Shown here: one piece after another, positions 6,596 to 31,748 of the stretch
Layout: the number at the start of each line of letters is the position of its first letter
Numbering within the stretch: the stretch's first letter is position 1
Assembly (NCBI GenBank): GCA_030059665.1
Contig: JANVYR010000001.1
Span: 407,164-439,163 of the forward strand
Direction: 5' to 3'
Length of the DNA stretch: 32,000 bases
Source: Candidatus Calditenuis fumarioli
Lineage (GTDB): Archaea; Thermoproteota; Nitrososphaeria_A; Caldarchaeales; Calditenuaceae
Translations under genes and position numbers: made by a program
The notes under the pieces: generated by a model
Database searches by the model: none
What the model was told of the DNA's origin: nothing
The model's input: the letters and a program-made list of their open reading frames with translations, nothing else

Positions 6596-6677
6596 GCCCC
6601 TCGCTCAGAGAGGCCTCTAGTTGCATTTAAGTGGGTGGGGTTGTGGGGGCTGGCCGAAAACTGAGGGTCGGTCCGGC

Positions 6678-7343
6678 TCAGGGACGATGTTGAATCACCT
6701 CCGCCAGCTCTTTCAGGTCCCTCACCTCGATCCTTGCCTCTACGCCCAACTCCTCCATTGGCAGGTTGTACCTGTTGAGGTAGACGGTGAAGAGGCCCGC
6801 AGCGCCTGCACCGGCCAGGTCCCAGGGATTCGAGGAGACGAAGCCCACCTCGCTTCTCGCCACACCGAACCTGTCCACGAGGCCGTAAACCCTCGGGCTG
6901 GGCTTGTAGACGCGCACCATCTCCGCCGATAGCAGCTCAGTGAAGTGCTTCCTCAGACCCGTGTTCCTGAGCAACTCGTCGACCATACCCCTGTCGCCGT
7001 TGGTCAGCGCGACAAGCCTGAAACGCCTTGCCAGCTCCGGAAGCGCCTCCACCGCGTCCTCGTGCGGCCTGAGGTTGAGCCACGCCTCCATCAGCCTCCT
7101 CTCCTGTTGCCTGTCGAGTGAGACGCCGAACCTACGTGCGGTGTATCGCAATGCCCACTCGGTGACGACCCAGAAGTTCTCGTACCGCTCCATCAGCGAC
7201 AGCAGGTGGGTGTACTCCAGCTGCTTGGCCCTCCAGACCCTCAGGAACTCTTGCGGCTCTGGGACCACTCCCCTTAGGGCAGAGGCGAGGCTGTTGAGGT
7301 CGTAGAGCGTGCCGTAAACGTCGAACGCGAGGAGCTCGATCAC
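6678..7343 (-). CDS. HAD-superfamily hydrolase, type II L-2-haloacid dehalogenase-like
   Basis: Nucleophile motif FDVYGTLYD, LTNGD and the C-terminal SSNPWDLAGA block are characteristic of haloacid dehalogenase type II. Confidence 0.8.
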   Translation of the reverse strand: MIELLAFDVYGTLYDLNSLASALRGVVPEPQEFLRVWRAKQLEYTHLLSLMERYENFWVVTEWALRYTARRFGVSLDRQQERRLMEAWLNLRPHEDAVEALPELARRFRLVALTNGDRGMVDELLRNTGLRKHFTELLSAEMVRVYKPSPRVYGLVDRFGVARSEVGFVSSNPWDLAGAGAAGLFTVYLNRYNLPMEELGVEARIEVRDLKELAEVIQHRP

Positions 7344-7419
7344 GCCGCAGCCCCTTCCGCAGCTGGATAAATCTCCTCCGGGAGCACCAGGCCTTCGATC
7401 GCCGCCACCGGTTTCTTCC

Positions 7420-8232
7420 TTGCGATTTTATAGCTCGATGAACGGCCAGCCCTGCGGAGGGAGACGGTTGGTGGCGCAGGGAGAACGGCTTGTAGGTCTG
7501 TTGAAGAGGTTCGGGCTCTCGGGATACGAGGTCAGGGCGTACCTCGCGCTGCTGGAGTTGGGCGAGGGAACCGCACAGGCGGTCTCCGAGGCCGCCAACG
7601 TTCCCAGATCGAGGGTCTACGAGGTGATGAACTCGCTGATAGAGAAGGGCTGGGCGATCGCGGTCAAGTCCAGGCCGACGAAATACAGGCCTCAGGACCC
7701 GGAGGTTGCCCTGAGGAGGAGCCTGATGAGGGTGGAGCGCGAGATGGAGGAGCTGGCGAAGGCCCTCGCGGACGAGCTGATGCCCCTTTACCGCGGCGGC
7801 GTGGGCGAGGAGGTGCCGGAGCTGGTGATCGTCAGGGGCGAGCAGGACCTCTGGAAACGGGTCAAGTCGACCATCGCCAAGGCCAGAAGGAGCCTCGCGG
7901 TCGCGCTGCCGCTGATACCCGAGGAGGTCGAGGAGACCCTGATTCCCGTCGCATCAATAATGAGGGAGCGGGGTGGATCGGTGAGGGTCCTGTTGGGGAA
8001 CGAGGTCGACGACAGGGACGCGAGGAAGTTAGCGGAGCACGCGGAGGTCCGAAGGAGGGAGCTGAGCTTCGGAGGGGGAGTGATAGCCGACGCCTCGGAG
8101 GTGGTCTTGGTCCTGATGGAGCCGGAGCGGCAGGTGCCCAGGTTGGGCATCCACTCTGCCCACTCGATGCTCACCATGTTAGCCCAGACTTACTTCGACA
8201 TGCTCTGGTCGACTTCCCAGCCGGCCTCCTGA
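7420..8232 (+). CDS. trmB: TrmB-family transcriptional regulator
   Basis: N-terminal wHTH SGYEVRAYLALLELGEGTAQAVSEAANVPRSRVYEVMNSLIEKGW. The TTTTATAG box at about 7425-7432 overlaps the annotated start. The true start is therefore probably downstream: ATG 7438 or GTG 7471. Confidence 0.82.
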   Translation: MRFYSSMNGQPCGGRRLVAQGERLVGLLKRFGLSGYEVRAYLALLELGEGTAQAVSEAANVPRSRVYEVMNSLIEKGWAIAVKSRPTKYRPQDPEVALRRSLMRVEREMEELAKALADELMPLYRGGVGEEVPELVIVRGEQDLWKRVKSTIAKARRSLAVALPLIPEEVEETLIPVASIMRERGGSVRVLLGNEVDDRDARKLAEHAEVRRRELSFGGGVIADASEVVLVLMEPERQVPRLGIHSAHSMLTMLAQTYFDMLWSTSQPAS

Positions 8233-8951
8233 AGGAGGTGCAGGAACCGGTAGGCGTCGTCGAACATGGTGACATTGTTGAACATCACGTATGCCCTCCT
8301 GAACTCGATCCTCCGCAGGTATCGCTCCAGTTTCCGTAGGTCCTCGTCGGTGTAGGTGTAGCTGTACATTTTCTTTCCCGGCGGAGAACCGTGCAGCCTG
8401 AGATAGAGCACCCTCTTGCTGGAGAGGTGAACGGGCTCCGAGGCGAATGGGTCAACAACGTGCACCACATCTGCCTCCTCGCAGACCTTCTTGACCCACG
8501 GCTCGCTCCAACCCCGCGGCTCGAACCCGATGGTCAACCCGTCCCGATCGATCTCCCTGAAGAAGCGGAGGGCGTTCTCGACGTTCGAGGGCGTATCCGT
8601 GAAGGAGGCGGGGGTCTGGACGACGCAGAACTCGGCACGGAGCGCCCTGCAGGCCTCCAGCGTGACCTCCCAGCTCTCCATCACCTCCCTGCTCATGCGG
8701 AGGAACCCGTGACCAGGCTTAGGTCTGACGTTCGACCTCTTCCAAGTGGGGCTGTTGCTCGGGTGCGTCACTCCCTGGAAAGCCTTGACCGCGAAAACGA
8801 AACCCTCCGGAACCGATTTCCTCCACCGCTCGAGGGTTTTGCGCTCGTGGACCCTGTAGAAGGTCGACTGGACCTCGACCGCGTTGAAGCGCTGGACGTA
8901 CCTCCTCATCGAGACCGGAAAGCCGCAGCAACCCACCAGGACGCCGCCCAT
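8190..8951 (-). CDS. DUF72 family protein
   Basis: 253 aa. The N-terminal GCCGFP....Y...FNAVEVQSTFY block and overall length match DUF72 (UPF0759). It lies 3 nt downstream of the HTH gene on the same strand. Confidence 0.8.
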   Translation of the reverse strand: MGGVLVGCCGFPVSMRRYVQRFNAVEVQSTFYRVHERKTLERWRKSVPEGFVFAVKAFQGVTHPSNSPTWKRSNVRPKPGHGFLRMSREVMESWEVTLEACRALRAEFCVVQTPASFTDTPSNVENALRFFREIDRDGLTIGFEPRGWSEPWVKKVCEEADVVHVVDPFASEPVHLSSKRVLYLRLHGSPPGKKMYSYTYTDEDLRKLERYLRRIEFRRAYVMFNNVTMFDDAYRFLHLLQEAGWEVDQSMSK

Positions 8952-8954
8952 GGC

Positions 8955-9689
8955 TCACCGCACCAGCGACCTGAGCGACTTGATCATGGACTCCACCGAG
9001 TCGGCCGTCGAGAGGATTAGCGGGATCCGCTCGATCTCGCTGAGCCTCTTCGCCAGCTCGTCGACCGAGTCGGGCGTCTTGGGCCCGTGAAGCACCACAA
9101 CCTTAGGCTTGAGGGGGAAGACGCGTATCGCGACCATGGGTGACCTGCCGGTGGAGACGTTGGTGAAGACCATCGCCCTCATCGAGTTCCGCCCGAAGAG
9201 GTTGACGAAGTCGTACGGCCCCAGCTCCGTTATCGCGGAGAGGCTGTCGATCACCGTGTAACCGTAGACGTGCCCCGATATCTCCTCCGGGACCGTGAGC
9301 GGGATCCCGAGGACCGCGGAGACAACCTTCTCTGTCTCTACCGGCGCGGGGAACTCCACCATGTCGATGACCGAGTGCTGGAGCCTCAGCGTCCCCTCGA
9401 ACATCTTGTGGACCACTTTCCCACCGCGTTTGATGTCCAGCTCGATCAGGCTCCTGACGTATCGCCCGACGAAGTTGATCCCCGGAGACCTCCTCTTCCC
9501 CTTCTCGTAGTCGCTCAGGACCGGTGAGGATATGCCCATCGCTGCAGCCACGTCCTTCTGCGTCAGCCCGAAGATCAGCCTCCACTTCCTCATGGTCTTG
9601 CCAGGATCGGTCGAGAAGACGATCTCGGCCGCTATCTTGTAGGCGACCTGGTTCACCAGCCAGTCGTCCGCCACCCTCCGCATAGCCAC
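8955..9689 (-). CDS. XRE-type HTH transcriptional regulator with a conserved archaeal C-terminal domain
   Basis: HTH block GLTQKDVAAAMGISSPVLSDYEKGKRRSP, followed by an alpha/beta domain of about 150 aa. Confidence 0.72.
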   Translation of the reverse strand: MAMRRVADDWLVNQVAYKIAAEIVFSTDPGKTMRKWRLIFGLTQKDVAAAMGISSPVLSDYEKGKRRSPGINFVGRYVRSLIELDIKRGGKVVHKMFEGTLRLQHSVIDMVEFPAPVETEKVVSAVLGIPLTVPEEISGHVYGYTVIDSLSAITELGPYDFVNLFGRNSMRAMVFTNVSTGRSPMVAIRVFPLKPKVVVLHGPKTPDSVDELAKRLSEIERIPLILSTADSVESMIKSLRSLVR

Positions 9690-9707
9690 GCCCCCGAATT
9701 TAGCCCA

Positions 9708-10763
9708 ATGGTTAATAAGGGATGCGCTGAAGATAGCCGGATGAATTACGGGAATGGTCTAGGGATGGCTGTTTTCGCGAGCCACAGCGCGCTCCAGCTC
9801 GTCCTCGGCGGCGAGGCGCAGGGCGTTCGGGTAGCTCTCTTCGGCCCCCAGCAGAGCCTGAGGCTGTACCGGCGCTTTCCGGGGATCGGGTGCGAGCTGA
9901 TCGAGTACTCCGGGCCCGAAACGCTGGAGCGTCTCGCCGAGCGCGGCTACGTCCTGGTCCCTAACGGGTCGGTGGTGGAGTACGTCGGGCCGGAAACGCT
10001 TGCCAGGTCGAGCGTCAGGGTCTTCGGGTCGAGGGAGCTGCTGAGGGCCGAGGCGAGCCAGAGCCGGAAGATGGAGCTCCTGAGAAGCGCGGGCATCCCG
10101 ACTCCGAGGACTTACTCTTCTCCGGACGAGATCGATGGTCCGGTCATCGTCAAGTTCCCCGGAGCCAAGGGCGGCAAGGGATACGAGGTCACCGAGGACC
10201 CCGAGAAGGTGAGGGAGCTGCTCCATTGGGCCGTCGAGAAAAGGCTCGCAGGGAGTCCGGATGAGGTGATGGTTCAGGAGTACCTGATCGGCACCACCCT
10301 CTACGCGCACTACTTCCACTCGCCGATCCACGACAGGACCGAGATCACCGGCTTCGACATCAGGTACGAGTCCGACGTCGACGGGCTGAGGCGTGCGCCT
10401 GTTGACGTGGCCTCGCGTTACTCGCCGACCTTCACCGTCGTCGGTAACCTTCCGGTCTTCCCGAGGGAGAGGCTGCTGGAGACGTTCCTCGAATACGGGG
10501 AGCGCTTCGTCAGCGCGGTGAAGCGAGAGCTCGGAGGGAAGTTCGCGGGGCCCTTCTGCCTCGAGTGCGTCGTGGACAGGGACCTGAACGTCCTCGCGTT
10601 CGAGTTCTCCGGCCGGATCGTCGCGGGCACCAACGTCTACCTCGTCCACGGAAGCCCGTACCTCGCCCTTTACTTCGGGAGGCCCATGACCGTCGGCGAG
10701 AGGGTTGCGCTCGAGCTGAGGGAGGCCCAGGAACGGGGGGCCCTCGAGGAGGTGCTGACCTGA
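9708..10763 (+). CDS. purP: FAICAR synthetase PurP (5-formaminoimidazole-4-carboxamide ribonucleotide synthetase, ATP-grasp), paralog 1
   Basis: ASHSALQ, VKFPGAKGGKGY (glycine-rich ATP-grasp loop), IRYESDVDGL, GPFCLE, SGRIVAGTN and the C-terminal LEEVLT closely match the archaeal PurP pattern as I recall it from M. jannaschii. The true start is probably Met at 9765 (MAVFASHSAL). Confidence 0.85.
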   Translation: MVNKGCAEDSRMNYGNGLGMAVFASHSALQLVLGGEAQGVRVALFGPQQSLRLYRRFPGIGCELIEYSGPETLERLAERGYVLVPNGSVVEYVGPETLARSSVRVFGSRELLRAEASQSRKMELLRSAGIPTPRTYSSPDEIDGPVIVKFPGAKGGKGYEVTEDPEKVRELLHWAVEKRLAGSPDEVMVQEYLIGTTLYAHYFHSPIHDRTEITGFDIRYESDVDGLRRAPVDVASRYSPTFTVVGNLPVFPRERLLETFLEYGERFVSAVKRELGGKFAGPFCLECVVDRDLNVLAFEFSGRIVAGTNVYLVHGSPYLALYFGRPMTVGERVALELREAQERGALEEVLT

Positions 10764-10793
10764 GGTTACCGCTTTACCCCAGCGCTGCCGCAC

Positions 10794-11861
10794 TTGACTG
10801 CGATGAGGGCGGACTCGGTGGCGTGCGTCGCATCCCATTCGGCCCTTGACGTCTTCGACGGGGCGAAGGACGAGGGCTTCGCGACCGTCGCTCTATGCAG
10901 GCTGGGCAGGGACGCGATCTACAGGGCTCTGCCCGAACTCATAGACCACTACATCGACCTGAAGGATTACCGCGAGATGCTCGACCAACGGGTTCAGGGG
11001 AGGCTCCGAGAGCTGGGGAGCGTGGTGGTCCCCAACAGGAGCATGGCCGTATACGTGGGGTACGAGGGGATAGAGAGGCACCTATCGGTTCCGGTCTTCG
11101 GGAACAGGATGATGCTCAGGTGGGAGGAGAGGACCGGCGAGAAGAACTACTACAGGCTCCTCGATGAGGCGGGCGTCAGGAGGCCCAGGACCTTCCGGGA
11201 CGTGGACGAGGTCGACAGGCCAGTTATGCTTAAGGTGCAGGAGGCCGAGCGGACCCAGGAGCGTGCCTTCATCATAGCGACCGATGCGGAGGACCTGAAG
11301 CGCAAGGTCCGGAGGGCCCTCGAAACGGGCACCATCAGCGAGGGGACGCTGAAAGCTGCGGTGATCGAGGAGCTGCTCCTCGGAGCGCACTTCAACGTCA
11401 ACTTCTTCGCGAGCAGGGTACGGAGGAGGCTCGAGATCGTCAGCGTCGACAGGAGGATACAGAGCGACCTCGACGGTTTCCTGAGGCTCACCGCCAGGGA
11501 GCAGCTCGAGATCGCAAGGACGCCCTCGATGATCGAGGTAGGTCACGAGCCCGCAACGCTGAGGGAGAGCCTGCTGAACCAGATCTACGAGATGGGTCAG
11601 AGGGTCGTCGAGGCTGCCTCGAGGTTAGAACCGCCGGGGCTGATCGGGCCCTTCACGCTCCAGCTGATGGTGATGCCGGACCTCTCCGCGGTCGTCTACG
11701 ACTTCGCACCGAGGATAGGTGGAGGAACCAACGCCCACATGGGAACCGGCGGGAACTACTCGAAGCTGTTCCTGAGAAGGGCCGTCTCGATGGGGAGGAG
11801 GATCTGCATCGAGCTGAGGGAGGCGAGGGAGCAGGGGATGCTCGACGAGGTATTGACGTAG
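10794..11861 (+). CDS. purP: PurP-family ATP-grasp protein, paralog 2 (divergent nucleotide loop)
   Basis: ASHSALDVFDGAKDEGF, VPVFGNRMMLRWEER, DRRIQSDLDG, GLIGPFTLQ, APRIGGGTN and the C-terminal LDEVLT match PurP. The loop aligned to KFPGAKGGKGY reads KVQEAERTQERAF. Confidence 0.82.
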   Translation: MTAMRADSVACVASHSALDVFDGAKDEGFATVALCRLGRDAIYRALPELIDHYIDLKDYREMLDQRVQGRLRELGSVVVPNRSMAVYVGYEGIERHLSVPVFGNRMMLRWEERTGEKNYYRLLDEAGVRRPRTFRDVDEVDRPVMLKVQEAERTQERAFIIATDAEDLKRKVRRALETGTISEGTLKAAVIEELLLGAHFNVNFFASRVRRRLEIVSVDRRIQSDLDGFLRLTAREQLEIARTPSMIEVGHEPATLRESLLNQIYEMGQRVVEAASRLEPPGLIGPFTLQLMVMPDLSAVVYDFAPRIGGGTNAHMGTGGNYSKLFLRRAVSMGRRICIELREAREQGMLDEVLT

Positions 11862-11867
11862 CGGCCC

Positions 11868-12233
11868 TCAGAGGAGGGGAAGGGAACCGGTAACCCTGTC
11901 AACCATCTCGGACGGCGCTGGTCCTATCCCGAGGGCGGTCACCGTCCCGGGTTCGAGCTCCGTCAGGCCGGCGTCGGAGACCAGCTCGCACGGGAGCCCG
12001 AGGGCCTCGGCCTTTTTCCGCAGTTCCTCAAGCTCCTCCAGGGACCTCGCCTTCACCACCACCTTCTTCTGGCCCTCGCTGAGCCATCTCTCGACCCAGG
12101 CCTGGTGGTAGCGCATGGCCCTGAGCAGCGCCGAGACGGAGGCGTGGGCCACCTGGACCGCGGTCTTACCGACGCTCATGCGGAGGTCAACCCTGACAAC
12201 TATCACCTGCTTGAACCCACGCTCGCCCGTCAA
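11868..12233 (-). CDS. pth2: Peptidyl-tRNA hydrolase, archaeal type (Pth2)
   Basis: 121 aa. [26 protein letters not shown] and [22 protein letters not shown] are hallmark Pth2 blocks. The TTG start overlaps the upstream stop codon (TTGA). Confidence 0.9.
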
Positions 12234-13102
12234 AGGGAAACCCTCCTGCTGCCGAACGTCGCTGGCTGGTTGTTGACCTTCACCACCCTGGTTTCACCGT
12301 AGGATCCCAGCGCCTCCCTCACCTCATCGACATTCTCCTCGTAGCAGAGCGCCGCGATCGCAGGTCCGGTCCCCGAGATGGAGCATGCCAGGGCCCCCTT
12401 CCTCAGAGCAGCGACGGTGACGTCCGTTCCGTAACCCAGCGCCGCCGAGTGAACGAGGCCGTTGAGCGTCATAGCCCTGATGTAATCTCCCCTCATCGCC
12501 AGCTCGAAGGCCACCTCGACGAGACCCCTGATGGGGAGCAGGTCCTCGCGCCTGAAGGAGGAGGTGAAGGTCCTCCTGCCCTCGGGGACCGAGATCACCG
12601 CCATGAGCCTCTCCTCCAGCTCTGACCTCATCAGGAGGGCCCTCCTCCGGTTGTCGGTCACCACGAAACCCCCGAGCATGCACGCGGAGGCGTCATCGGC
12701 AGCTCCCGTGATTGACGTGCCAGAGCGTATCGAGACCTCCGAGACCAGGTCGAGCAGCTCCCAGTATCGCGGGACCTCGCCGATGGCGTCGAAGAGGGCC
12801 AGCGTGACCGCTGAGGCCGCAGCGCTGGAGCTTTTCAGCCCCACCGCCACCGGTATCTCCGACTCAACCTCGACCCTGCACCCCTTCCCGGAGAGGGCCT
12901 TCCTCTCGGCCACCAACTTGAACGCGGTCCTAGCAACGGAGTCGTCCGCCTCCTGACCCCTGCACCTGAACGAGAAGACGCCGTCGTCGGTGAGCTCCAC
13001 GGTCGCCGCCATCCTCAGATCGATCCCTATGGCCGCGCCCTTCCCGATCGAGATCGCGTTAACCACCGTCACCGCCCCTTTGACCTCCGCCCTTCCTCTC
13101 AT
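12230..13102 (-). CDS. aroK: Shikimate kinase, archaeal GHMP-kinase type
   Basis: [36 protein letters not shown] (GHMP motif II), [14 protein letters not shown] and [11 protein letters not shown] align along the whole length with the M. jannaschii-type shikimate kinase pattern. Confidence 0.85.
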
Positions 13103-24821: not shown

Positions 24822-25283
24822 TCACTCCACTGGCGTCCTCCTCTCCTTCGGTATCTGCGGGTGGACCTTCCCGTCCCTCGAGACCTTCCCGCTCCCCGCG
24901 AAGAGCGGTCCGTGTCGGGCCACCACGAAGCTCGCCTCGGGATCCGCTCCGAGCTCCGAGATGTCTATCGGTTGACCGGACGCCCACCTCTCGAGCTGCG
25001 CGGCGTTGAGCTCGACCACGTTCCTCCTCAACCTCGGACCGAACAGCTGGGATCCCTCGACGGAGAGGTAGAGGCCGAACTTGGTCCGCTTGAGGACGTA
25101 GAGACCCAGAGCCTCCACCTTCCCGATCCGCTGCGCCGTCTCGTACGCCTCCCTGGTGACAGCCCTTACCTTGCCCTCGGAGGCCTCGACGAGGACGAGG
25201 TCCTGCGGAATCTCGTCAATCCCGAACTCCCTCTCCAGCAGCTCCAGCAGGGCCTTCCGGTCAGACCGATCGAGGACCTTCAC
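24822..25283 (-). CDS. Nip7-like pre-PUA/PUA RNA-binding protein
   Basis: 153 aa. The N-terminal alpha/beta half is followed by a C-terminal PUA-like beta segment (ASFVVARHGPLFAGSGKVSRDG). It is GTGA-coupled to the upstream Nop2-like methyltransferase. The assignment rests on pattern resemblance only. Confidence 0.5.
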   Translation of the reverse strand: MKVLDRSDRKALLELLEREFGIDEIPQDLVLVEASEGKVRAVTREAYETAQRIGKVEALGLYVLKRTKFGLYLSVEGSQLFGPRLRRNVVELNAAQLERWASGQPIDISELGADPEASFVVARHGPLFAGSGKVSRDGKVHPQIPKERRTPVE

Positions 25284-26227
25284 CGCGTCTCACCCTTCTC
25301 GATCAGCGCGACGAAGAAGCCCTCGCCGCCGTTGTCGTAGGGATAGCACTTGAAGCACTTGGCTACCTCGGGGTCGAACCGGATTCCGCTCCACTCCTCC
25401 AGGGGCCGCCTGACCTTGAGGCCCTCTGGTCTGAACTCGAGCACCCTCGCACCAGACCTCCTGCTCAGGAGCTCTGACACAACCCACTCGTTCTCGAGAG
25501 GGTGTATGGTGCACGTAGAGTACACGACCCTGCCCCCTGGGGACGTCGCGTCGTAGGCGGAGAGCAGAAGGGAGAGCTGGAGGACCCTGACGCGCTCCGT
25601 TATCCCGTGGGAGTAATTCTTTGCGGCCGCCCAGTCCTTCATCACGATCCCCAGCGAGCTGCAGGGGACGTCGCAGAGCACCCTGTCGAAGCTCTCCCTC
25701 ATCCTCTTCCCGAAGTACCGGCCGTCCTTCAGCGTGACCACGCAGTTCATCACGCCCCAGCGCTGAAGGTTCGAGATCAAGGGTCTGATCCGCTCGGTCG
25801 AGGCGTCGTTGGCGACTAGGACACCCGAGTTCTCCATCAGCTGGGCGATCTGGGTCGACTTGCTCCCGGGCGCAGCGCATAGGTCGAGCACCCTCTCTCC
25901 CGGCCTCGGGTCAAGGGCCTCAACCGGGACCATCGATATCGGCCCCTGGATGTAGATCAGGCCGAAGAGGTGGGGGACCGTAGCTCCGAGCTCCTCACGC
26001 TCGGCCCTGTTCGCCCTGTACGCGTGCCTCGCCCAGGATATCCGTTCCACCTCCCAACCCCTCTCCCTTAGGAACGAGACTATCACCTCCTCTGGGAGCT
26101 TCAGCGTGTTGACCCTGAACGTCTCCGGCAGCGGTCTCGTCATCGCATCGAGGTACAGGTCGACGTCCACGTCCGGGAGGCTCTGGAGGAGGGCCAACAG
26201 ATCCTCCGATACCGGAATCCTGCTCAC
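25280..26227 (-). CDS. RNA cytosine-C5 methyltransferase, NOL1/NOP2/Sun (RsmB/Trm4) family
   Basis: SAM motif VLDLCAAPGSKS, motif IV DRVLCDVPCSSLG and motif VI GRVVYSTCTIHPLENE (both catalytic Cys present). The GTG start overlaps the ogg stop codon. Confidence 0.9.
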   Translation of the reverse strand: MSRIPVSEDLLALLQSLPDVDVDLYLDAMTRPLPETFRVNTLKLPEEVIVSFLRERGWEVERISWARHAYRANRAEREELGATVPHLFGLIYIQGPISMVPVEALDPRPGERVLDLCAAPGSKSTQIAQLMENSGVLVANDASTERIRPLISNLQRWGVMNCVVTLKDGRYFGKRMRESFDRVLCDVPCSSLGIVMKDWAAAKNYSHGITERVRVLQLSLLLSAYDATSPGGRVVYSTCTIHPLENEWVVSELLSRRSGARVLEFRPEGLKVRRPLEEWSGIRFDPEVAKCFKCYPYDNGGEGFFVALIEKGETR

Positions 26228-26856
26228 TTCAGAACCTCACCCGTCGAGGCGTACCAGAGGAGGAGGTCCAGTTCCTCAGGACTCATCCCTAGCTCTCCGG
26301 AGAGCGCCAGGAACCTCTGCTCCAGCTCGAGGTAGGTCCGGCGGGTCAGTGACCTCGGAACCCTCTCGATGGCTCCCAGCACCTCCATCCAGCGGAGAAC
26401 GTGTCTGTCGAGGACCGCGATTCCGGTGAAGCCGACGTTCCTCATGAAGTGAGAGGCCTCCTTCAGCCCGAAGCCCCAGACCCTCTCCACCAGCGCGTCC
26501 CTCACCGATCCCGTCTCCCCCTGCAGGAGGGCGACCAGCACCGCTGGTTCTCCTCTGAGAAGACGTCTGTTCAGGACGAGGTAACGAGCCTTCCGGACGT
26601 GGAACCTTATGCCGTTCCTCCTCATCACCTCCGCGACCTCCGAGGCCCGACCCGAGAGGAGGAGGCCTGAGGCTTTCAGCTCGTCGATCGCCCTGAGCGC
26701 CGCCTTAGCTTTGGACTGGGGCGTCATGACGCAGAAGGCCAGCTCCTCGAAGAGCCTGAAGGGGTCGCTCCTGTCGACGGACCGGAACTCCGCGATCCTC
26801 CGCTCGATCAGCCCCCGCACCTCCTCGTACGCCCTCAGCAATCGCTCCAGGGCCAT
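26224..26856 (-). CDS. ogg: 8-oxoguanine DNA glycosylase/AP lyase, archaeal Ogg2 type
   Basis: End-to-end pattern match to M. jannaschii-type Ogg: RIAEFRS, ELAFCVMTPQS, RFHVRKARYLV, GLKEASHFMRNVG, AVLDRHVLR, and the C-terminal LLLWYASTGEVLK. Confidence 0.88.
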   Translation of the reverse strand: MALERLLRAYEEVRGLIERRIAEFRSVDRSDPFRLFEELAFCVMTPQSKAKAALRAIDELKASGLLLSGRASEVAEVMRRNGIRFHVRKARYLVLNRRLLRGEPAVLVALLQGETGSVRDALVERVWGFGLKEASHFMRNVGFTGIAVLDRHVLRWMEVLGAIERVPRSLTRRTYLELEQRFLALSGELGMSPEELDLLLWYASTGEVLK

Positions 26857-26903: not shown

Positions 26904-28343
26904 TCAGGACTGCCTCAGCAGCCTCCCCAGCTTCGTCCTGGTCGTGCCGAGCGTCATCGTGCCGGGGTCTATCACCCTGAAGGTGATCGGCAGCCTCCCA
27001 ACCGCCTTCCCCCACGCGAGGACGTTCCCGGGAGGAAGGTTAGGCAAAATGGACCTGAGTGTCTCCGGGTCGATCTCCAGGTTTCGGGCCAGGTGCTCTA
27101 TGTCGGACCCGTTCCTGATGTTGAACATGAAGACGTTGTCGGCCTGACGGTAGATCAGCGCCGGGATCGAGTCGGGCTGGTTGGTTATCAGGACGGTCGA
27201 TATCCCTATGTGCCTCATCCTCGTGATGACGTCCTCCCAGTAGGTCTCCCTCAGGTAAAGGTGGGCCTCCTCCGCGAACAGGACGATCGGGTCGATCTCG
27301 TCGTTGAACAGGAGCTCCTTCATCCTGCTCAGCAGGAACTCGACGAAGACCCGCCTCTGGATCGATCCGAGCCTGCTCATGTCGAAGACCACCAGCGCAC
27401 CTCTGTCAGGCGGGAAGAGGGAGGTGAGGTCGACCTCCAGTTCCTCCTGATCGGAGTCCGTGAAGATGCCCGTGGACTCGAGCGTCAGCAGCCTGTTGGC
27501 GACCGCATCGCGGACCGACTCGTTCATCGGTACCGACTGGACGGCCCTCATCAGATTCGGGAAGGTGAGGGCCCTCCTCCTGCGGAGGTCCCTGACCAGC
27601 CTCAGCAGCTCCCTCAAACTCGTCTGTGGGAGGCCCAAAGCGTACGTCATGACGTCGGCCAGGACCTCGTCCGACATGGAGGCCAGCGGGACCTGGAAGT
27701 TCACGCCGGGAGCGAGCACGGTCATCAGATCCGAGACGTGGCTGGGTTCGCCGTCCCTCCGCCTGCCGAGCGAAACGTACTCTCCGTTCACGTCGAGCAC
27801 CACCACGTTGCACCCGGCCCTCGCGAGCTCAGACGACAGGACCTTCGCCAGGTGGGACTTCCCCGATTCCTTCCTTCCGACTATGAGGGTGACGCTTCCC
27901 TCAACGCTCGTGGCGTCGATCACCACGCCCTCGCCCACCCTAACAGGCACCTTCGGTGGTGGAATCACCGTCCTGAGCAGGTCGCTCACCTCGACCCTCC
28001 TCACCCGGGACGCGTACCTGGAGGGAAGCCAGAGCCTGTTGGGGTCGACGCCGTTGACCCTCCTGACCTTCGCCACCACGACCCTTGAGTCCCTGATCGA
28101 CCTGACGACCGATTCGATCTCGATCGGGTCCAGCCGCTCGGTCACCTCAACGGATCCACTCGAAAGGTCCCTCAGGATGTCCTCCATCAGCCCCGGAACG
28201 TCGGCGTACTCCACGTCTATCACCTGGAGCAGGATCTTCCGGTCGCTCTCCTCCACGACCAGGTAGTCCCCGAGCGAGAGGTCTGAGTCCCACGAGAGCG
28301 CGAGCAGCTCCACCTTGTCGCCCGACTTCCTGAAGAGCCTCAT
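26904..28343 (-). CDS. herA: HerA-family (FtsK/HerA superfamily, DUF87) ATPase
   Basis: 479 aa. The N-terminal beta-rich, HAS-barrel-like segment (LGDYLVVEESDRKILLQVIDVEY) is followed by Walker A IVGRKESGKSHLA, Walker B PIVLFAEEAH and VLITNQPDSI. The ATG overlaps the stop codon of the upstream NurA-like gene (ATGA). Confidence 0.85.
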   Translation of the reverse strand: MRLFRKSGDKVELLALSWDSDLSLGDYLVVEESDRKILLQVIDVEYADVPGLMEDILRDLSSGSVEVTERLDPIEIESVVRSIRDSRVVVAKVRRVNGVDPNRLWLPSRYASRVRRVEVSDLLRTVIPPPKVPVRVGEGVVIDATSVEGSVTLIVGRKESGKSHLAKVLSSELARAGCNVVVLDVNGEYVSLGRRRDGEPSHVSDLMTVLAPGVNFQVPLASMSDEVLADVMTYALGLPQTSLRELLRLVRDLRRRRALTFPNLMRAVQSVPMNESVRDAVANRLLTLESTGIFTDSDQEELEVDLTSLFPPDRGALVVFDMSRLGSIQRRVFVEFLLSRMKELLFNDEIDPIVLFAEEAHLYLRETYWEDVITRMRHIGISTVLITNQPDSIPALIYRQADNVFMFNIRNGSDIEHLARNLEIDPETLRSILPNLPPGNVLAWGKAVGRLPITFRVIDPGTMTLGTTRTKLGRLLRQS

Positions 28344-29302
28344 CTCCCATCGAACGGTGAGAGGACCGCGGCCCTCACGTCGACCTCCTCGTGCACCCTC
28401 AGCCCGTACCTCCTCTCGAGGACCGATTTGATCGCGGCGATCTCGGCCCAGCTGTGCCTCGAGAAGGCGTGGGCGACCGTGAGCGTCTCAGGGTAACCGG
28501 AGATCAGCGCGTCGCTCGCCACGACGTCCGAGAGCGCATCGATCCACCGGTCCGCCGGGAAGACGTCCGCCCTGAAGGCGATGCCGCCTTTCTCGAGGCG
28601 GGCAACTGTCACTCCGACCTCTCCACCTGGGTACGGAAGGAGCTGGGCCCTCCTCGCCAGGAGCGCCACCCTCTCCGCCTTTCCGAGCAAGTGCCCGAGG
28701 TGGGCGGCGAGGACGCTGTTCTTCGCTATTCCGATCACGGACGTGCCGTCCGTTGAAAGCGGGAGCTCTGGCACCCTCGTTAGCGGCATGTCGAGGAGGA
28801 GAACGGATTCGGGAGCCTCCCTTGAGACCAGCTTCTGGACGAGCGACTCGAACCTCCTCAGCTCGACGAGCGCCACGGAATCCGTGGAGGAGGGCTGCAC
28901 GACGCTCGCCAGCTTCGGCAGCGGCCCCACCACCCTGACCCGCATCGAGCTGCCCGATCTGATTACCACCGCAGCCTTCAGCGAGAGGAGCGGCCTCCCT
29001 CCCGCGAACCCGAGCTGGACGACGGAGCCGTCGACCGCGACCAACCTCCTCCGCGTCCCGGGAGCTATCGCGGCCGGCTCTAGGTCACCATCCTGCACAA
29101 CTTGCCCAAGGATCGCCGCCTCGTCATCCAGATCCTGATCGGCTTCCTGACCGTTCAGGAAGAGAACGCCCGTCGGGTCTCTCGAGGCCCTTTTGAGCTC
29201 GTCCACCCACAACTCCGCGATACTTTTAAATAAGTGCCATGAGACATCGAAGGTGTTGAGGCGAAGCAACTCGGTAGCCATGCTCACTCCGCCCACCATC
29301 AA
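28340..29302 (-). CDS. nurA: NurA-like nuclease (divergent)
   Basis: 320 aa. It has the NurA-type motif order: LVAVDGS (Asp91), an acidic ELRRFES block, LLLDMPL, and the C-terminal GYPETLTVAHAFSRHS. The likely true start is ATG 29281, preceded by GGAG 5 nt upstream. TTG 29302 and ATG 29299 are alternatives. Confidence 0.62.
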   Translation of the reverse strand: MMVGGVSMATELLRLNTFDVSWHLFKSIAELWVDELKRASRDPTGVLFLNGQEADQDLDDEAAILGQVVQDGDLEPAAIAPGTRRRLVAVDGSVVQLGFAGGRPLLSLKAAVVIRSGSSMRVRVVGPLPKLASVVQPSSTDSVALVELRRFESLVQKLVSREAPESVLLLDMPLTRVPELPLSTDGTSVIGIAKNSVLAAHLGHLLGKAERVALLARRAQLLPYPGGEVGVTVARLEKGGIAFRADVFPADRWIDALSDVVASDALISGYPETLTVAHAFSRHSWAEIAAIKSVLERRYGLRVHEEVDVRAAVLSPFDGR

Positions 29303-29316
29303 AGGAAATTGCTGGC

Positions 29317-29324
29317 TATTTAAT
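29317..29324. promoter_or_regulatory. Shared AT-rich TATA-like box (TATTTAAT) between divergent genes
   Basis: This is the only AT-rich element between the NurA-like gene and the + strand small gene. It is centred about 24 nt upstream of ATG 29344 and about 39 nt upstream of ATG 29281 on the other strand. Confidence 0.4.
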
Positions 29325-29829
29325 GTTGCGCAGGTTGGTCAACATGAATCAGGATAATTCAACAAACAGGGTGAAGGTGAGGCTCAACGTCCGGGGCGTC
29401 GAGGTCGAGATAGAGGCGCCCGTGGATCAGCTCGAGGAGAGCGTGAGGAGGGTCATGGCAGCGCTCGGCGAGGCGGAGGCCAGACAGGAGAGGCCGGCGC
29501 AGGAGGTCAGGAGGCAGCTCACGTGCAGGCAGGTGGTCGAGCGCCTCGTCTCCGAGGGTTACTTCCGGGAGCCGCGGACCCTCTCGGACGTCTACCAGGA
29601 GGTCAAGAGGCGGGGGTACGGCTTCGACGCTACCGCAGTGGCGCACGTTCTCCTCGAGCTGGTGAGGGAGGAGGTGCTCGACAGAGACGGATCGCCGAGG
29701 AGGTACCTTTACAGGGAGAAGAGGCGCATCGAGGCGAAGGGGTTTCCCGAGACAGGAAGCGACCAGCTCACCCTGCCTGCTGCCGAGGAGAGAAGCGCTC
29801 GATCAGATACCGCATCCCCATCGGGGTGA
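29323..29829 (+). CDS. Hypothetical small protein P1: N-terminal KVxLxxxGVE motif plus winged-helix-like domain
   Basis: 168 aa. The N-terminus is NRVKVRLNVRGVEVEIEAPVDQLEESVRRVMAAL. The central wHTH-like region is LTCRQVVERLVSEGYFREPRTLSDVYQEVKRRGYGFDATAVAHVLLELVREEVL. The tail looks disordered. The annotated ATG lies inside the TATA-like box, so ATG 29344 is the more likely start. Confidence 0.55.
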   Translation: MLRRLVNMNQDNSTNRVKVRLNVRGVEVEIEAPVDQLEESVRRVMAALGEAEARQERPAQEVRRQLTCRQVVERLVSEGYFREPRTLSDVYQEVKRRGYGFDATAVAHVLLELVREEVLDRDGSPRRYLYREKRRIEAKGFPETGSDQLTLPAAEERSARSDTASPSG

Positions 29830-30271
29830 CCTCGTAGTCTCCCCTCTCGAGCCTCCTCACGAAACCGCTCTTCCGCAACTCGCTCAGAGCTCCCGTCAGA
29901 GTCCCCCTCTTCAGCCCGAGGCCCTCCGAGAGCTCGCGGAGGTTGGTGGAGCTCGACTGCCTCCTGCCGAGCAGGTGCTCGACCCTTCTCAGCGCTAGGT
30001 AAAGGAGGACCTGGTCGGGAGCGGGCAGTCCGTGCGCCGTGGGTCTGAACGCGAACCCGATGGACTCGTCGAAGACGACGTGCTCCTTCACCGACTCGAG
30101 GAACTCGGGCACGCTCACGTCCACGCTCAGCGCCCTCGCCAGGGAGTAGGCCGGAACCACCTTCTCCACGAACTCGTGGACCGCCCTGATGACCGACGTG
30201 ACGTCGCCCTCCACCGAGAACTCAACGCCCTCATGCCTAAGGGTGACCTTGAGCGTGTCCTTCGAGGACAA
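29768..30271 (-). CDS. Hypothetical small protein P2, paralog of P1, with a C-terminal winged helix
   Basis: 167 aa. The N-terminus DTLKVTLRHEGVEFSVEGDVTSVIRAVHEFVEKV aligns with P1. The C-terminal wHTH is NLRELSEGLGLKRGTLTGALSELRKSGFVRRLERGDYEVTPMG. TTG start. Its 3' end overlaps the 3' end of P1 by 62 nt. Confidence 0.58.
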   Translation of the reverse strand: MSSKDTLKVTLRHEGVEFSVEGDVTSVIRAVHEFVEKVVPAYSLARALSVDVSVPEFLESVKEHVVFDESIGFAFRPTAHGLPAPDQVLLYLALRRVEHLLGRRQSSSTNLRELSEGLGLKRGTLTGALSELRKSGFVRRLERGDYEVTPMGMRYLIERFSPRQQAG

Positions 30272-30368: not shown

Positions 30369-31748
30369 ATGAGCTCACCGGCGATCTACGAACATCTGCT
30401 CCTGCTGGCGGTGGCCGCTGTCGTCGTCTTCCCGAACCAGCTTCCATATCCTCCACTGGATACGACGCCCTCCGCGGTCTCTTCACCGGCCGTCAACGTC
30501 CTCGTCATGGCGCTTCCGACGGAGCGGGCCGTTGTGGTCTACGAGATCGATTCAGGATCCCTCTGGAGAATAGGACTGGGCTTCGTTCCGGAGGGGGTCG
30601 TCTCGTCGGGCGACAGGGCGCTTGCCTACTCGAGGATCCAGCAGAAGGCGGCGCTCCTCGACCTCCGGGCTAGGGCCGTCCTAAGGGAGATCGACGTCCG
30701 GGTGGAGGCTGCCTGGCCTGCAGCGAACGGCTTCCTCGTCCACGACGGCCTCAAGCTGATCGTCCTCAGCCCCGACGGAGAGATCGTCAGGGACTTCAAA
30801 ACCGGTTATGCCGGATCGCCCTGGTCCGGTAGTGCTAAGGGGAACGCTTTCTGGTTCGTTGAGGAGGACCTCGTGACGCTGAACCTCCTCGACCTGAGTA
30901 CTGGTCAGATCAGGCAGGTCTACAAACACAACGATAAGATAACAGCGGTTCTCGCGCTCACCGAAAACAGTGCAGCCATCTCCTCGAAGGGCTACATGGG
31001 TATCATTAGGTCCGACGGGACGCGGAGGGACCTCAAGATCCCATATCAGGTCTCAGAGGCGACGTTTCTGTTCCCCGCGAAAGCAGGGAGGGTCGTCTTC
31101 GTCGACTTGATCCATCGCGTCGTGGGGATCATCGGTGAGGACCTCGCGGAACATAGGGTGGTCGAGAGGTTGACGTTCGCCCTCGCCTCACCTGCGCCGT
31201 CAAAGCTCTACGTCCTCGACCCATCGGCGAAGACGCTGGACCTATTCGACCTCACGTTCGAGCCCGAGATCAGGGAGGCGCGCTTCCTCGTCACCGGGAA
31301 GTCCACGGTCAGGGTCGAGGCCGTCGTGGTGGACCTGGACAAGGACGCGGAACCGGGGTTCCCGCAGGTAGTCGTCGAGGACAGTAAGGGCACGAGGACG
31401 ATAGTTCCGATGAGGGCCCTCCCCGACAGCAGGTACTCGGCGGACGTGGACCTGAGCGACCTGCGGGGAACGGCGACCGTCAGGGTCGTCGTGAGGGACG
31501 AGGAGGGGCACGTCGCCCAGAGCAAAGAGTACAGGGTAGAGGTGGAGGCAGGCGAGATCAAGACGACGACTGGACTCACCGTCACAAACACAGTCACTAG
31601 CCCTGCCCAAACCGGTAGGGAGACCCAGCAGCTGCTGTTGTCCTCGGTCGAGCTGACCTTCTTCCTCGTCCTGGTGGGCGCCCTCGTCCTCGTGGCACTC
31701 AGGGCCCGCAGAACCGGAAGGTCACGCGCCAGGAAGAGAAAGGCTTAA
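30369..31748 (+). CDS. Predicted surface-anchored protein (N-terminal hydrophobic signal/anchor, beta-rich ectodomain, C-terminal TM helix plus polybasic tail)
   Basis: 459 aa. The N-terminus has HLLLLAVAAVVVF. A long beta-strand-rich region follows, resembling a beta-propeller plus an Ig-like module. A Thr-rich linker (TTTGLTVTNTVTSP) precedes the C-terminal LTFFLVLVGALVLVAL helix and then RARRTGRSRARKRKA. Confidence 0.68.
   Translation: MSSPAIYEHLLLLAVAAVVVFPNQLPYPPLDTTPSAVSSPAVNVLVMALPTERAVVVYEIDSGSLWRIGLGFVPEGVVSSGDRALAYSRIQQKAALLDLRARAVLREIDVRVEAAWPAANGFLVHDGLKLIVLSPDGEIVRDFKTGYAGSPWSGSAKGNAFWFVEEDLVTLNLLDLSTGQIRQVYKHNDKITAVLALTENSAAISSKGYMGIIRSDGTRRDLKIPYQVSEATFLFPAKAGRVVFVDLIHRVVGIIGEDLAEHRVVERLTFALASPAPSKLYVLDPSAKTLDLFDLTFEPEIREARFLVTGKSTVRVEAVVVDLDKDAEPGFPQVVVEDSKGTRTIVPMRALPDSRYSADVDLSDLRGTATVRVVVRDEEGHVAQSKEYRVEVEAGEIKTTTGLTVTNTVTSPAQTGRETQQLLLSSVELTFFLVLVGALVLVALRARRTGRSRARKRKA

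Follow-up and report, generated by a model that had tools for sequence, protein, structure and literature searches.

The question raised by the locus described here is what a gene pair encoding a NurA-like nuclease and a HerA-like ATPase does when no mre11 or rad50 gene lies beside it and two small genes for winged-helix proteins, P1 and P2, accompany it. The four genes occupy positions 26904-30271 of a stretch of 32,000 nucleotides (nt) from Candidatus Calditenuis fumarioli (assembly GCA_030059665.1, contig JANVYR010000001.1, positions 407,164 to 439,163 of the forward strand), which is called the window below and to whose numbering all coordinates refer unless another locus is named. HerA-NurA together with Mre11-Rad50 constitutes the central and essential machine for double-strand-break resection in thermophilic archaea, and to our knowledge work on it has centred almost entirely on Sulfolobales and Thermococcales, with no dedicated regulator or accessory subunit known to us. 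The initial annotation of this DNA had regarded the block as a stand-alone module distinct from the herA-mre11-rad50-nurA operon, acting in defence or, equally possibly, in repair, with P1 and P2 as sensors or regulators. The analysis presented here leads to a different answer: with a probability of roughly 60%, the block is the form that the archaeal HerA-NurA end-resection machine takes in Bathyarchaeia and Nitrososphaeria (including Aigarchaeota), inherited vertically and very divergent in sequence. What is new in this locus are the accompanying winged-helix proteins P1, P2 and, in other lineages, P3, and a conserved promoter element.

Organization and conservation of the four-gene block

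The HerA-like ATPase gene (26904-28343, minus strand) encodes 479 amino acids (aa) in the open reading frame (ORF) listing of the window and the NurA-like nuclease gene (28340-29302, minus strand) encodes 320 aa when counted from a TTG codon at 29302, with the stop codon of the latter and the start codon of the former overlapping as ATGA at 28340-28343, as had been annotated initially. On the other side of the NurA-like gene, P1 (29323-29829, plus strand, 168 aa) is transcribed divergently and runs towards P2 (29768-30271, minus strand, 167 aa), the 3' ends of these two convergent genes overlapping by 62 nt. Alignments of homologues and the position of the AT-rich box suggest shorter NurA-like and P1 proteins, whose true starts are probably the ATG codons at 29281 (313 aa) and 29344 (161 aa), respectively. 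With the starts revised in this manner, the divergent promoter spacer between them (29282-29343, no strand assigned) measures 62 nt and not 20 nt, and the AT-rich box that both genes were proposed to share is confirmed as the TATA-like sequence ctatttaat at 29317-29325, the only box of this kind in the spacer.

Conservation of this arrangement was analysed in 82 non-redundant loci fetched via the ATPase, whose six-frame ORFs were scanned with hidden Markov models built for the four proteins, and in the reverse direction in 80 metagenome loci fetched via P1; about 165 loci were fetched overall. The NurA-like gene lies directly upstream of the HerA-like gene in 77 of 78 loci, and a P1-type gene adjoins the NurA-like gene in 76 of 76, of which 72 carry a strong match in divergent orientation and 4 a weak match in co-directional orientation. 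Starting from P1, a NurA-like gene is adjacent in 64 of 64 metagenome loci with enough sequence, two apparent misses having proved to be threshold artefacts with the gene in place, and a HerA-like gene is found in 40 of 40. One or more P2 genes are present within 5.5 kb in 48 of 63 loci (two copies in 31 and one in 17), and all three sampled P2 relatives situated on long contigs sit 1-5 kb from the module. Unsupervised clustering of neighbouring ORFs recovered only HerA (83 loci), NurA (81), P1 (74) and P2 (52 and 24) as conserved across lineages, all other clusters being lineage-specific. The module is single-copy in each locus, the NurA-like and HerA-like genes overlap by NTGA in 37 of 80 loci, and in nearly all others their junction lies within approximately 20 nt. 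Whether the search starts from the ATPase or from P1, the genes are almost always found together, even across classes with ATPases only about 40% identical. A lack of conserved P1/P2 linkage in other genomes, which had been named beforehand as speaking against the initial proposal, is decisively not what is found, and the four genes stand as a conserved unit. In one Bathyarchaeia genome (L181, 11692-13473), genes for a mechanosensitive channel, a ParE toxin with a small partner and a DUF2283 protein are inserted between a P3-P2-P2 operon and P1, showing that both the operon of small genes and the P1-NurA-HerA core can persist when insertions part them.

The highest identities, 81-99%, are to proteins from metagenome-assembled genomes of Candidatus Calditenuis (Aigarchaeota/Caldarchaeales) and from hot-spring metagenomes. 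Full-length ATPase orthologues span 38-81% identity, and those with 38-45% are found in other Caldarchaeales, Nitrososphaeria, Wolframiiraptor, Hecatellales and many Bathyarchaeia. Relatives of the ATPase are present in at least 587 species genomes in a scan with one genome per species, the best matches among those listed belonging to Caldarchaeales, other Nitrososphaeria and Bathyarchaeia. Public annotation labels the ATPase "ATP-binding protein" or "DUF87" and lists P1 and P2 as "hypothetical", and an identity look-up returned no exact match on record for the HerA-like protein of the window.

The HerA-like ATPase and the NurA-like nuclease

The HerA-like protein matches Pfam DUF87 with 49.4 bits against a cut-off of 23.2, and its translation contains recognisable Walker A (GRKESGKSH) and Walker B (FAEEAH) motifs. 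It is predicted to be a hexameric P-loop translocase of the FtsK-HerA superfamily, and its membership in the HerA family is solid on sequence grounds. A profile of 14 orthologues compared with PDB placed HerA of S. solfataricus (4d2i, E 2.6e-19) first among the solved relatives, ahead of the anti-phage HerAs. The same protein remains below every curated NCBIfam model, including the HerA equivalog models (NF040937 / NF040819), and the Pfam HAS-barrel domain is matched weakly (17.2 bits against 25.2, residues 20-55). The best NCBIfam match is to CedD (NF053655), whose cut-off of 600 bits is far from reached (52.4 bits), and this lead was rejected because CedD is a membrane-anchored VirB4-like ATPase and the match is confined to the ATPase core (residues 154-428). 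In addition to its ATPase core, CedD contains a VirB4-like N-domain and a membrane-spanning segment, and its partners are Ced proteins located in the membrane (PMC11868833). The HerA-like protein has the FtsK-HerA ATPase core in common with CedD/CedB of Sulfolobales, and differs from them by its low score and by the absence of any conserved membrane partner near the module.

On the nuclease side, Pfam NurA is matched independently by 15 of 20 orthologues of the NurA-like protein (best E 2.6e-6). Among these 20 sequences D91, S93, D171, K194, R244, D246, Y270-P-E272 and H278 are invariant and E152 is nearly so. The active site of P. furiosus NurA comprises Asp51/Glu105/Asp126/His411 (PMC3300031), which D91/E152/D171/H278 resemble in order and approximate spacing, as mapped along the sequences rather than by structural superposition. 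A profile of the NurA-like family compared with PDB sequences was of almost no informative value, as it retrieved NurA (2ygk) with an E-value of only 0.16 and its top matches were spurious designed PPR proteins. Taken together, the NurA-like protein is a putative RNase-H-fold nuclease with a conserved Asp-Glu-Asp-His site. Both enzymes had been described initially as short or divergent members of their families. The divergence is borne out, and the shortness is not, since the HerA-like protein has 479 aa as compared to 500 aa in the 4d2i chain and the NurA-like protein 313-320 aa as compared to 339 aa in the 2ygk chain.

Association with mre11 and rad50

The relation of this pair to end resection follows from the genes that accompany it in relatives. 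All fetched loci were probed with an Mre11-like ORF from contig L040. Of the 69 genome loci whose sequence extends far enough downstream, 10 have Mre11-like and Rad50-like genes just downstream of the module HerA-like gene and on its strand, and additional metagenome loci show this too. In four of the 10 (L025, L038, L045 and L069) a contiguous series P2a-P2b-P3-NurA-like-HerA-like-Mre11-Rad50 is present, with most gaps of 0-4 nt, which in L045 extends from 5538 to 12727; the hosts are Hecatellales (L045) and related Bathyarchaeia. In NCBIfam, the downstream proteins match best to the archaeal models for Mre11, with scores reaching 123 bits, and Rad50, with scores reaching 204 bits. The Rad50 is short (649-695 aa) and has both Walker motifs (A and B), LSGGE and, in its centre, a zinc hook of sequence CPLC.

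As relatives have mre11 and rad50 downstream on the same strand, the NurA-like/HerA-like pair can be taken as the end-resection HerA/NurA of this lineage, and the proposal of a stand-alone system distinct from the herA-mre11-rad50-nurA set is not supported. The initial annotation had named a split operon as the finding that would speak against its proposal, and relatives provide essentially this picture, with the window itself lacking Mre11 and Rad50 among the ORFs scanned in its 32 kb, as stated initially; no defence or mobile-element gene was detected among them either. The window is accordingly best read as a split arrangement of the classical set of four resection genes. The gene content reported for Nitrosocaldus includes a HerA-NurA pair as well as Mre11 and Rad50 (PMC5797428). 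In the literature searched, no description of this module or of Mre11/Rad50/HerA inventories for Aigarchaeota, Bathyarchaeota or Calditenuis was found.

Winged-helix proteins P1, P2 and P3

AlphaFold2 models place a β-hairpin (strands 16-23 and 26-33) and a helix (34-53) at the N-terminus of P1, followed by a disordered linker and a winged helix-turn-helix domain (68-132). P2 is modelled with the same kind of hairpin-helix (7-49), a small β-hairpin insert, a MarR-like winged helix-turn-helix and an additional C-terminal helix, with a mean predicted local distance difference test (pLDDT) score of 83. Over the winged helix-turn-helix of both proteins pLDDT exceeds 90. Foldseek comparison, which had been suggested at the outset, yielded as top matches only generic winged-helix proteins (probability ~1.0, E ~7e-3), and no whole-chain match to the hairpin-helix architecture of P1 or P2 was present in PDB at E <= 0.001. 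The top match of P1, the winged helix of Hop2 (2mh2, E 7e-3), was not taken as meaningful. Against Pfam and NCBIfam, P1 gave no match below E 0.02, and P2 stayed under the curated cut-offs of Pfam MarR (22.5 against 24.6, E 1e-4) and HVO_A0261_N (25.2 against 35). The early description of P1 and P2 as small winged-helix proteins outside recognised families is therefore supported by the models and by the failure of either protein to pass any Pfam or NCBIfam cut-off. Their description as paralogs needs to be narrowed: the convergent layout stands, pairwise BLASTP is not significant (E 0.57), and the two profiles align over about 38 N-terminal residues only (hhalign 94%, E 1.4e-7). Hence, paralogy holds for the N-terminal module and the overall architecture and is not demonstrable for the winged helix.

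P1 is a highly conserved protein, with 19 residues invariant across classes and an almost invariant putative recognition region (D-x-T-A-V-A/S-H-x-L-L-D-L-V). Its identity among homologues is 37-53%, as compared to 40-59% for the HerA-like and 21-40% for the NurA-like protein. In other lineages a protein with the P1 architecture and related motifs, designated P3, is present, and many Bathyarchaeia have a three-gene operon P3-P2a-P2b upstream. A winged helix of the P1 type also forms the C-terminal domain of FtsK/HerA-type P-loop ATPases of 480-550 aa, joined through a coiled-coil linker (P0360, P0310 and P0351; L184 at 8001-9500). In P0360, DUF87 is matched with 39 bits and the P1 domain with E 7e-27, and P0310 and P0351 are alike; these ATPases belong to a different, smaller subfamily. 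The locus of P0310 is crowded with small unannotated ORFs, which suggests the setting of an archaeal mobile element or virus, and a scan of viral contigs for the fusion P0360 found nothing. A further protein of 811 aa (P0357) contains at least four tandem P1-like repeats.

A conserved element in the divergent promoter

When P1/NurA-like spacers were aligned on the TATA box, a second conserved feature emerged, a short element next to the box on the P1 side that nearly all lineages possess. In the window, the double heptamer TTGCGCAggTTGGTCA (29326-29341, plus strand; reverse-strand counterpart 29327-29342) abuts the TATA-like box on the P1 side. The spacer element reads CCTGCGCAAC in the window and close relatives, CTTGCGCAAC in other Caldarchaeales, where TTGCGCAA constitutes a perfect palindrome, TTGTGCAtcTTGTTCATGCACAAC in Bathyarchaeia and TTGCTCAAgTTGAGCAAC in Nitrososphaeria and Wolframiiraptor. 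These can be described by the pattern [TC]TGNNCA-NN-[TC]TGNNCA, in which two heptamers of the TTGnnCA type follow each other in a 9-bp register. The pattern is present in the P1/NurA-like spacer of 58 of 73 loci (85 hits), as compared to 12 hits in the other 1.11 Mb of sequence (0.011 per kb) and to 4 of 7300 shuffled spacers. The element is retained in loci without a nearby P2, and a P1-type gene is present in every such case.

The element is located between the TATA box and the P1 start, and because of this position the P1 mRNA is probably leaderless; with respect to the opposite nurA-herA promoter, it occupies the place expected for the transcription factor B recognition element. We consider the double heptamer a probable operator, and since it abuts the common TATA box in 58 of 73 loci, P1 is the probable regulator that would bind it. 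Together with the divergent position of P1, the element is by analogy the signature of an autoregulating dimeric winged-helix factor. The likeness to MarR/ArsR-type autoregulators includes the winged-helix folds of P1 and P2, the divergent orientation of P1 and the palindromic element beside the TATA box, whereas P1 and P2 depart from these families in passing no Pfam or NCBIfam cut-off and in possessing a hairpin-helix module that is not matched over the whole chain in PDB. The view of P1 and P2 as regulators, expressed in the initial annotation, thus gains support from the winged-helix folds and the operator-like element, with P1 as the presumed binder.

The only other match to the pattern in the 32-kb window (CTGCACAACTTGCCCA / TTGGGCAAGTTGTGCA, 29093-29109) lies inside the NurA-like coding region, approximately 175 nt from its start, and similar in-gene copies are found in L060, L061 and L070. 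This copy may be an auxiliary operator acting through looping, or may be due to chance. Upstream of P2 genes no double heptamer was found, and P2 promoters have no operator that is common to different lineages. Promoters of the bathyarchaeal P3-P2a-P2b operon carry another conserved box, ACGTAAATTCTAAAAGG, preceded by conserved AT-rich blocks (L181 at ~9380-9500, L183, L036, L041, L047, L051, L053, L062 and others), and promoters of the seven-gene operon contain 3-4 ACGTAA(A) repeats (L045 at ~5420-5535, L038 and L069). This box and these repeats are a second, different candidate operator, observed without counts against controls.

Proposed function and alternative explanations

Most probably, the module belongs to the archaeal HerA-NurA end-resection system and is a strongly diverged representative of it. 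Its likeness to the known system consists of a HerA-clade ATPase closest to 4d2i, a partner whose family contains the NurA domain and the Asp-Glu-Asp-His pattern, tight coupling of the two genes and the presence of mre11-rad50 in the same operon of some relatives. The translational coupling would ensure synthesis of the NurA-like protein and of the HerA-like ring translocase in a fixed proportion, and both would act with Mre11-Rad50 in preparing DNA ends for homologous recombination, Mre11-Rad50 being encoded in the same operon in some Bathyarchaeia and presumably elsewhere in the genome in Calditenuis. P1 would most likely bind the double TTGnnCA heptamer beside the common TATA box, repressing its own gene and gating nurA-herA expression, for example after DNA damage, and P2, like its paralogues P2b/P3 in other lineages, would probably pair with P1, or these proteins among themselves, via the N-terminal hairpin-helix, as co-regulators. 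The repair role, initially offered as an alternative, is thus supported by the mre11-rad50 link in relatives.

The module is not a plain member of the archaeal HerA-NurA system, because it fails the curated cut-offs and lacks adjacent mre11-rad50 in the window. It also differs in its gene order, nurA-herA(-mre11-rad50), with most genomes being without adjacent mre11-rad50, and in its obligate winged-helix companions and conserved candidate operator, for which no description was found in the HerA-NurA literature searched. Several observations weigh against the assignment to end resection or against the regulatory role of P1. The HerA-like protein attains 23.7 bits on NCBIfam HerA_Thermprot, about 3% of the cut-off of 800, and the NurA-like protein of the window attains 19.6 bits on Pfam NurA, whose cut-off is 21; paralogy with a different role would be compatible with such low scores. 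Adjacency of mre11-rad50 is confined to Bathyarchaeia (the 10 of 69 loci) and is never seen in Caldarchaeales, nor in the window. Furthermore, L040 (Guaymas Bathyarchaeota, QMYG01000017) holds the module and a more canonical nurA-herA pair directly before mre11, this second cluster being located at 5978-10177. There, the module is followed by a NUDIX gene, a small ORF, the second nurA-herA pair and the mre11-like gene, the second nurA encoding 484 aa (55 bits on Pfam NurA) and the second herA 543 aa (231 bits on NF040819 and 195 bits on the other HerA model, both below cut-off). The module and another, more canonical pair can therefore occur together, L040 being the only locus with such a pair among the approximately 165 examined. 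As to the regulatory role, part of the promoter element might instead encode the beginning of a longer P1 (ATG TTG CGC), and the co-directional winged-helix genes that head the seven-gene operon in four lineages, together with a P1 conserved to the same extent as the ATPase, fit a subunit equally well.

This last point leads to the possibility, tentative and on balance unlikely, that P1, P2 and P3 are structural DNA-binding subunits too, which recognise ends or lesions or load and target the HerA ring. The winged helix of FtsK gamma guides FtsK, and a comparable guidance of the ring is proposed by likeness. Consistent with such a role, a P1-type gene adjoins the module in every one of the 76 loci over a deep divergence, its identity being similar to that of HerA and higher than that of NurA; P2a-P2b-P3 lead the contiguous operon in L025, L038, L045 and L069; a P1-type winged helix is fused C-terminally to the ATPases P0360, P0310 and P0351; and the N-terminal hairpin-helix is modelled as an incomplete fold with lower confidence when taken alone, as might be expected of an interaction module. 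At the same time, the conserved palindromic promoter element is of the kind that a classical dimeric transcription factor would require, no P2 gene is present within 5.5 kb in 15 of 63 loci, and the fusions involve a different, smaller ATPase subfamily in a context resembling mobile elements. The regulator role is hence weighted above the subunit role, and the two are not mutually exclusive. In its fullest form, for which the odds are likewise low, P1, P2 and P3 would assemble through their hairpin-helix modules into a multi-winged-helix complex integral to a five- to seven-component HerA-NurA-Mre11-Rad50 machine. If true, such a complex would serve Bathyarchaeia, Aigarchaeota and thermophilic Thaumarchaeota as an accessory or targeting factor specific to these lineages, and we know of no comparable factor for archaeal Mre11-Rad50/HerA-NurA.

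A doubtful alternative is that the module represents an ancient paralogue of HerA-NurA with a separate housekeeping role, such as at stalled forks or oxidative lesions, and that the canonical pair resides elsewhere in the genome. The extreme divergence from the curated HerA/NurA models and the side-by-side presence of both pairs in L040 agree with this explanation, as do the ogg gene (8-oxoguanine glycosylase) following HerA-like with 4-nt overlaps in Caldarchaeales and the NUDIX/NUDIX_4 gene directly downstream in 30 Bathyarchaeia loci. There is also precedent in Sulfolobales, where an uncharacterised NurA-like/HerA-like pair exists beside the canonical operon (SiL_0094-0095, Saci_0148) and is described as being under the control of the ribbon-helix-helix (RHH)-type protein aCcr1 (PMC9976892). 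Compared by description only, that pair resembles the module in being an additional pair of a TACK archaeon that lies apart from the canonical operon, and differs in being controlled by an RHH-type protein and not by a winged-helix neighbour. Against paralogy, a second pair was seen in L040 only, 13 other loci with mre11-rad50 beside the module pair have no further HerA/NurA in their flanks, and Mre11 and Rad50 of the same lineages also score far below curated cut-offs, because of which the divergence is to be regarded as a trait of these lineages and not as proof of paralogy.

An anti-virus or anti-plasmid defence system, in which a HerA ring would act with a nuclease effector as in SIR2-HerA or DUF4297-HerA and P1/P2 would be sensors, is highly improbable: it could draw on partial matches of the HerA-like protein to the PADLOC HerA and mad8 models (E down to 2.8e-17), on the general likeness of a HerA-type ring ATPase with an effector to SIR2-HerA, DUF4297-HerA and MADS mad8, and on the pairing of HerA with varied effectors in known defence systems (PMC11472057), but the PADLOC matches are limited to the ATPase core or C-terminal part, NurA-like and P1 match nothing there, neither SIR2 or DUF4297 nor another defence effector was found near the module among the scanned ORFs or by PADLOC, the partner being NurA-like, the distribution is lineage-wide, syntenic and vertical rather than patchy or island-borne, the neighbours are housekeeping genes in DNA of even composition, 2.9 million viral contigs contain no family member (only unrelated partial matches of 22-29%), and relatives link the module to mre11-rad50.

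Returning to end resection, stand-alone pairs are also known in bacteria, where NurA-HerA of Deinococcus radiodurans and HepA of Thermus are reported to act in end resection (PMC9960219, PMC5448004). The likeness lies in a nurA-herA pair without adjacent mre11-rad50. The bacterial pairs differ in having been acquired from archaea, and no winged-helix partners of bacterial NurA-HerA are known to us.

If the module indeed acts in end resection, a version of this machine that is divergent enough to have been missed by annotation would be in use across much of the archaeal tree, namely in Bathyarchaeia, Aigarchaeota and thermophilic Nitrososphaeria (at least 587 species genomes), and comparative-genomic tallies of lineages with HerA and NurA would need correcting in its light. 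The conserved accessory winged-helix family and the candidate operator would be a real addition to a well-studied repair system, and would provide a testable handle on how archaeal end resection is switched or targeted.

Neighbouring genes in the window

Downstream of the HerA-like gene, and on the same minus strand, the window contains ogg (26224-26856, Pfam Ogg-HhH 165.7 bits), rsmB/F (25280-26227, Pfam RsmB-F 161.5 bits) and a small PUA-like gene (24822-25283, Pfam TruB-C_2 23 bits). The order ogg, RsmB/F-type methyltransferase and PUA-like gene 3' of HerA-like is found in Caldarchaeales, in 18-19 loci, and junctions along HerA-like/ogg/rsmB/F/PUA-like are 4-nt overlaps in L001 (9464-11481) and L182 (13884-15870), with a gap of 47 nt between HerA-like and ogg in the window. 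These three genes form a Caldarchaeales-specific extension of the transcription unit, outside the conserved core. The NUDIX/NUDIX_4 gene of the 30 Bathyarchaeia loci is convergent with the module, and both it and ogg, each a lineage-specific neighbour, are suggestive of DNA maintenance.

The other ORFs scanned are all housekeeping or metabolic and encode UbiA, TldD/PmbA, nth and pspC products, an acyl-CoA synthetase, a fused hydroxyacyl-CoA dehydrogenase/enoyl-CoA hydratase, two PurP-like proteins and a GHMP kinase; the Pfam scan bears out the early identification of ogg and nth as neighbours. The guanine-plus-cytosine content is even along the window (0.62-0.65), with a sole dip to 0.54 at 1001-2000, distant from the four-gene block. 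At 9708-10763 and 10794-11861 there are tandem paralogous genes, each with DUF1246 and DUF1297, which are listed in Pfam as of unknown function and which we take to be the domains of PurP-type formate-dependent FAICAR synthetase. Beside P2, an ORF of 459 aa (30369-31748) has no Pfam match and is not kept beside the module elsewhere; its product has hydrophobic N- and C-terminal segments and, following the latter, a strongly basic tail RARRTGRSRARKRKA, and is probably a surface-anchored protein.

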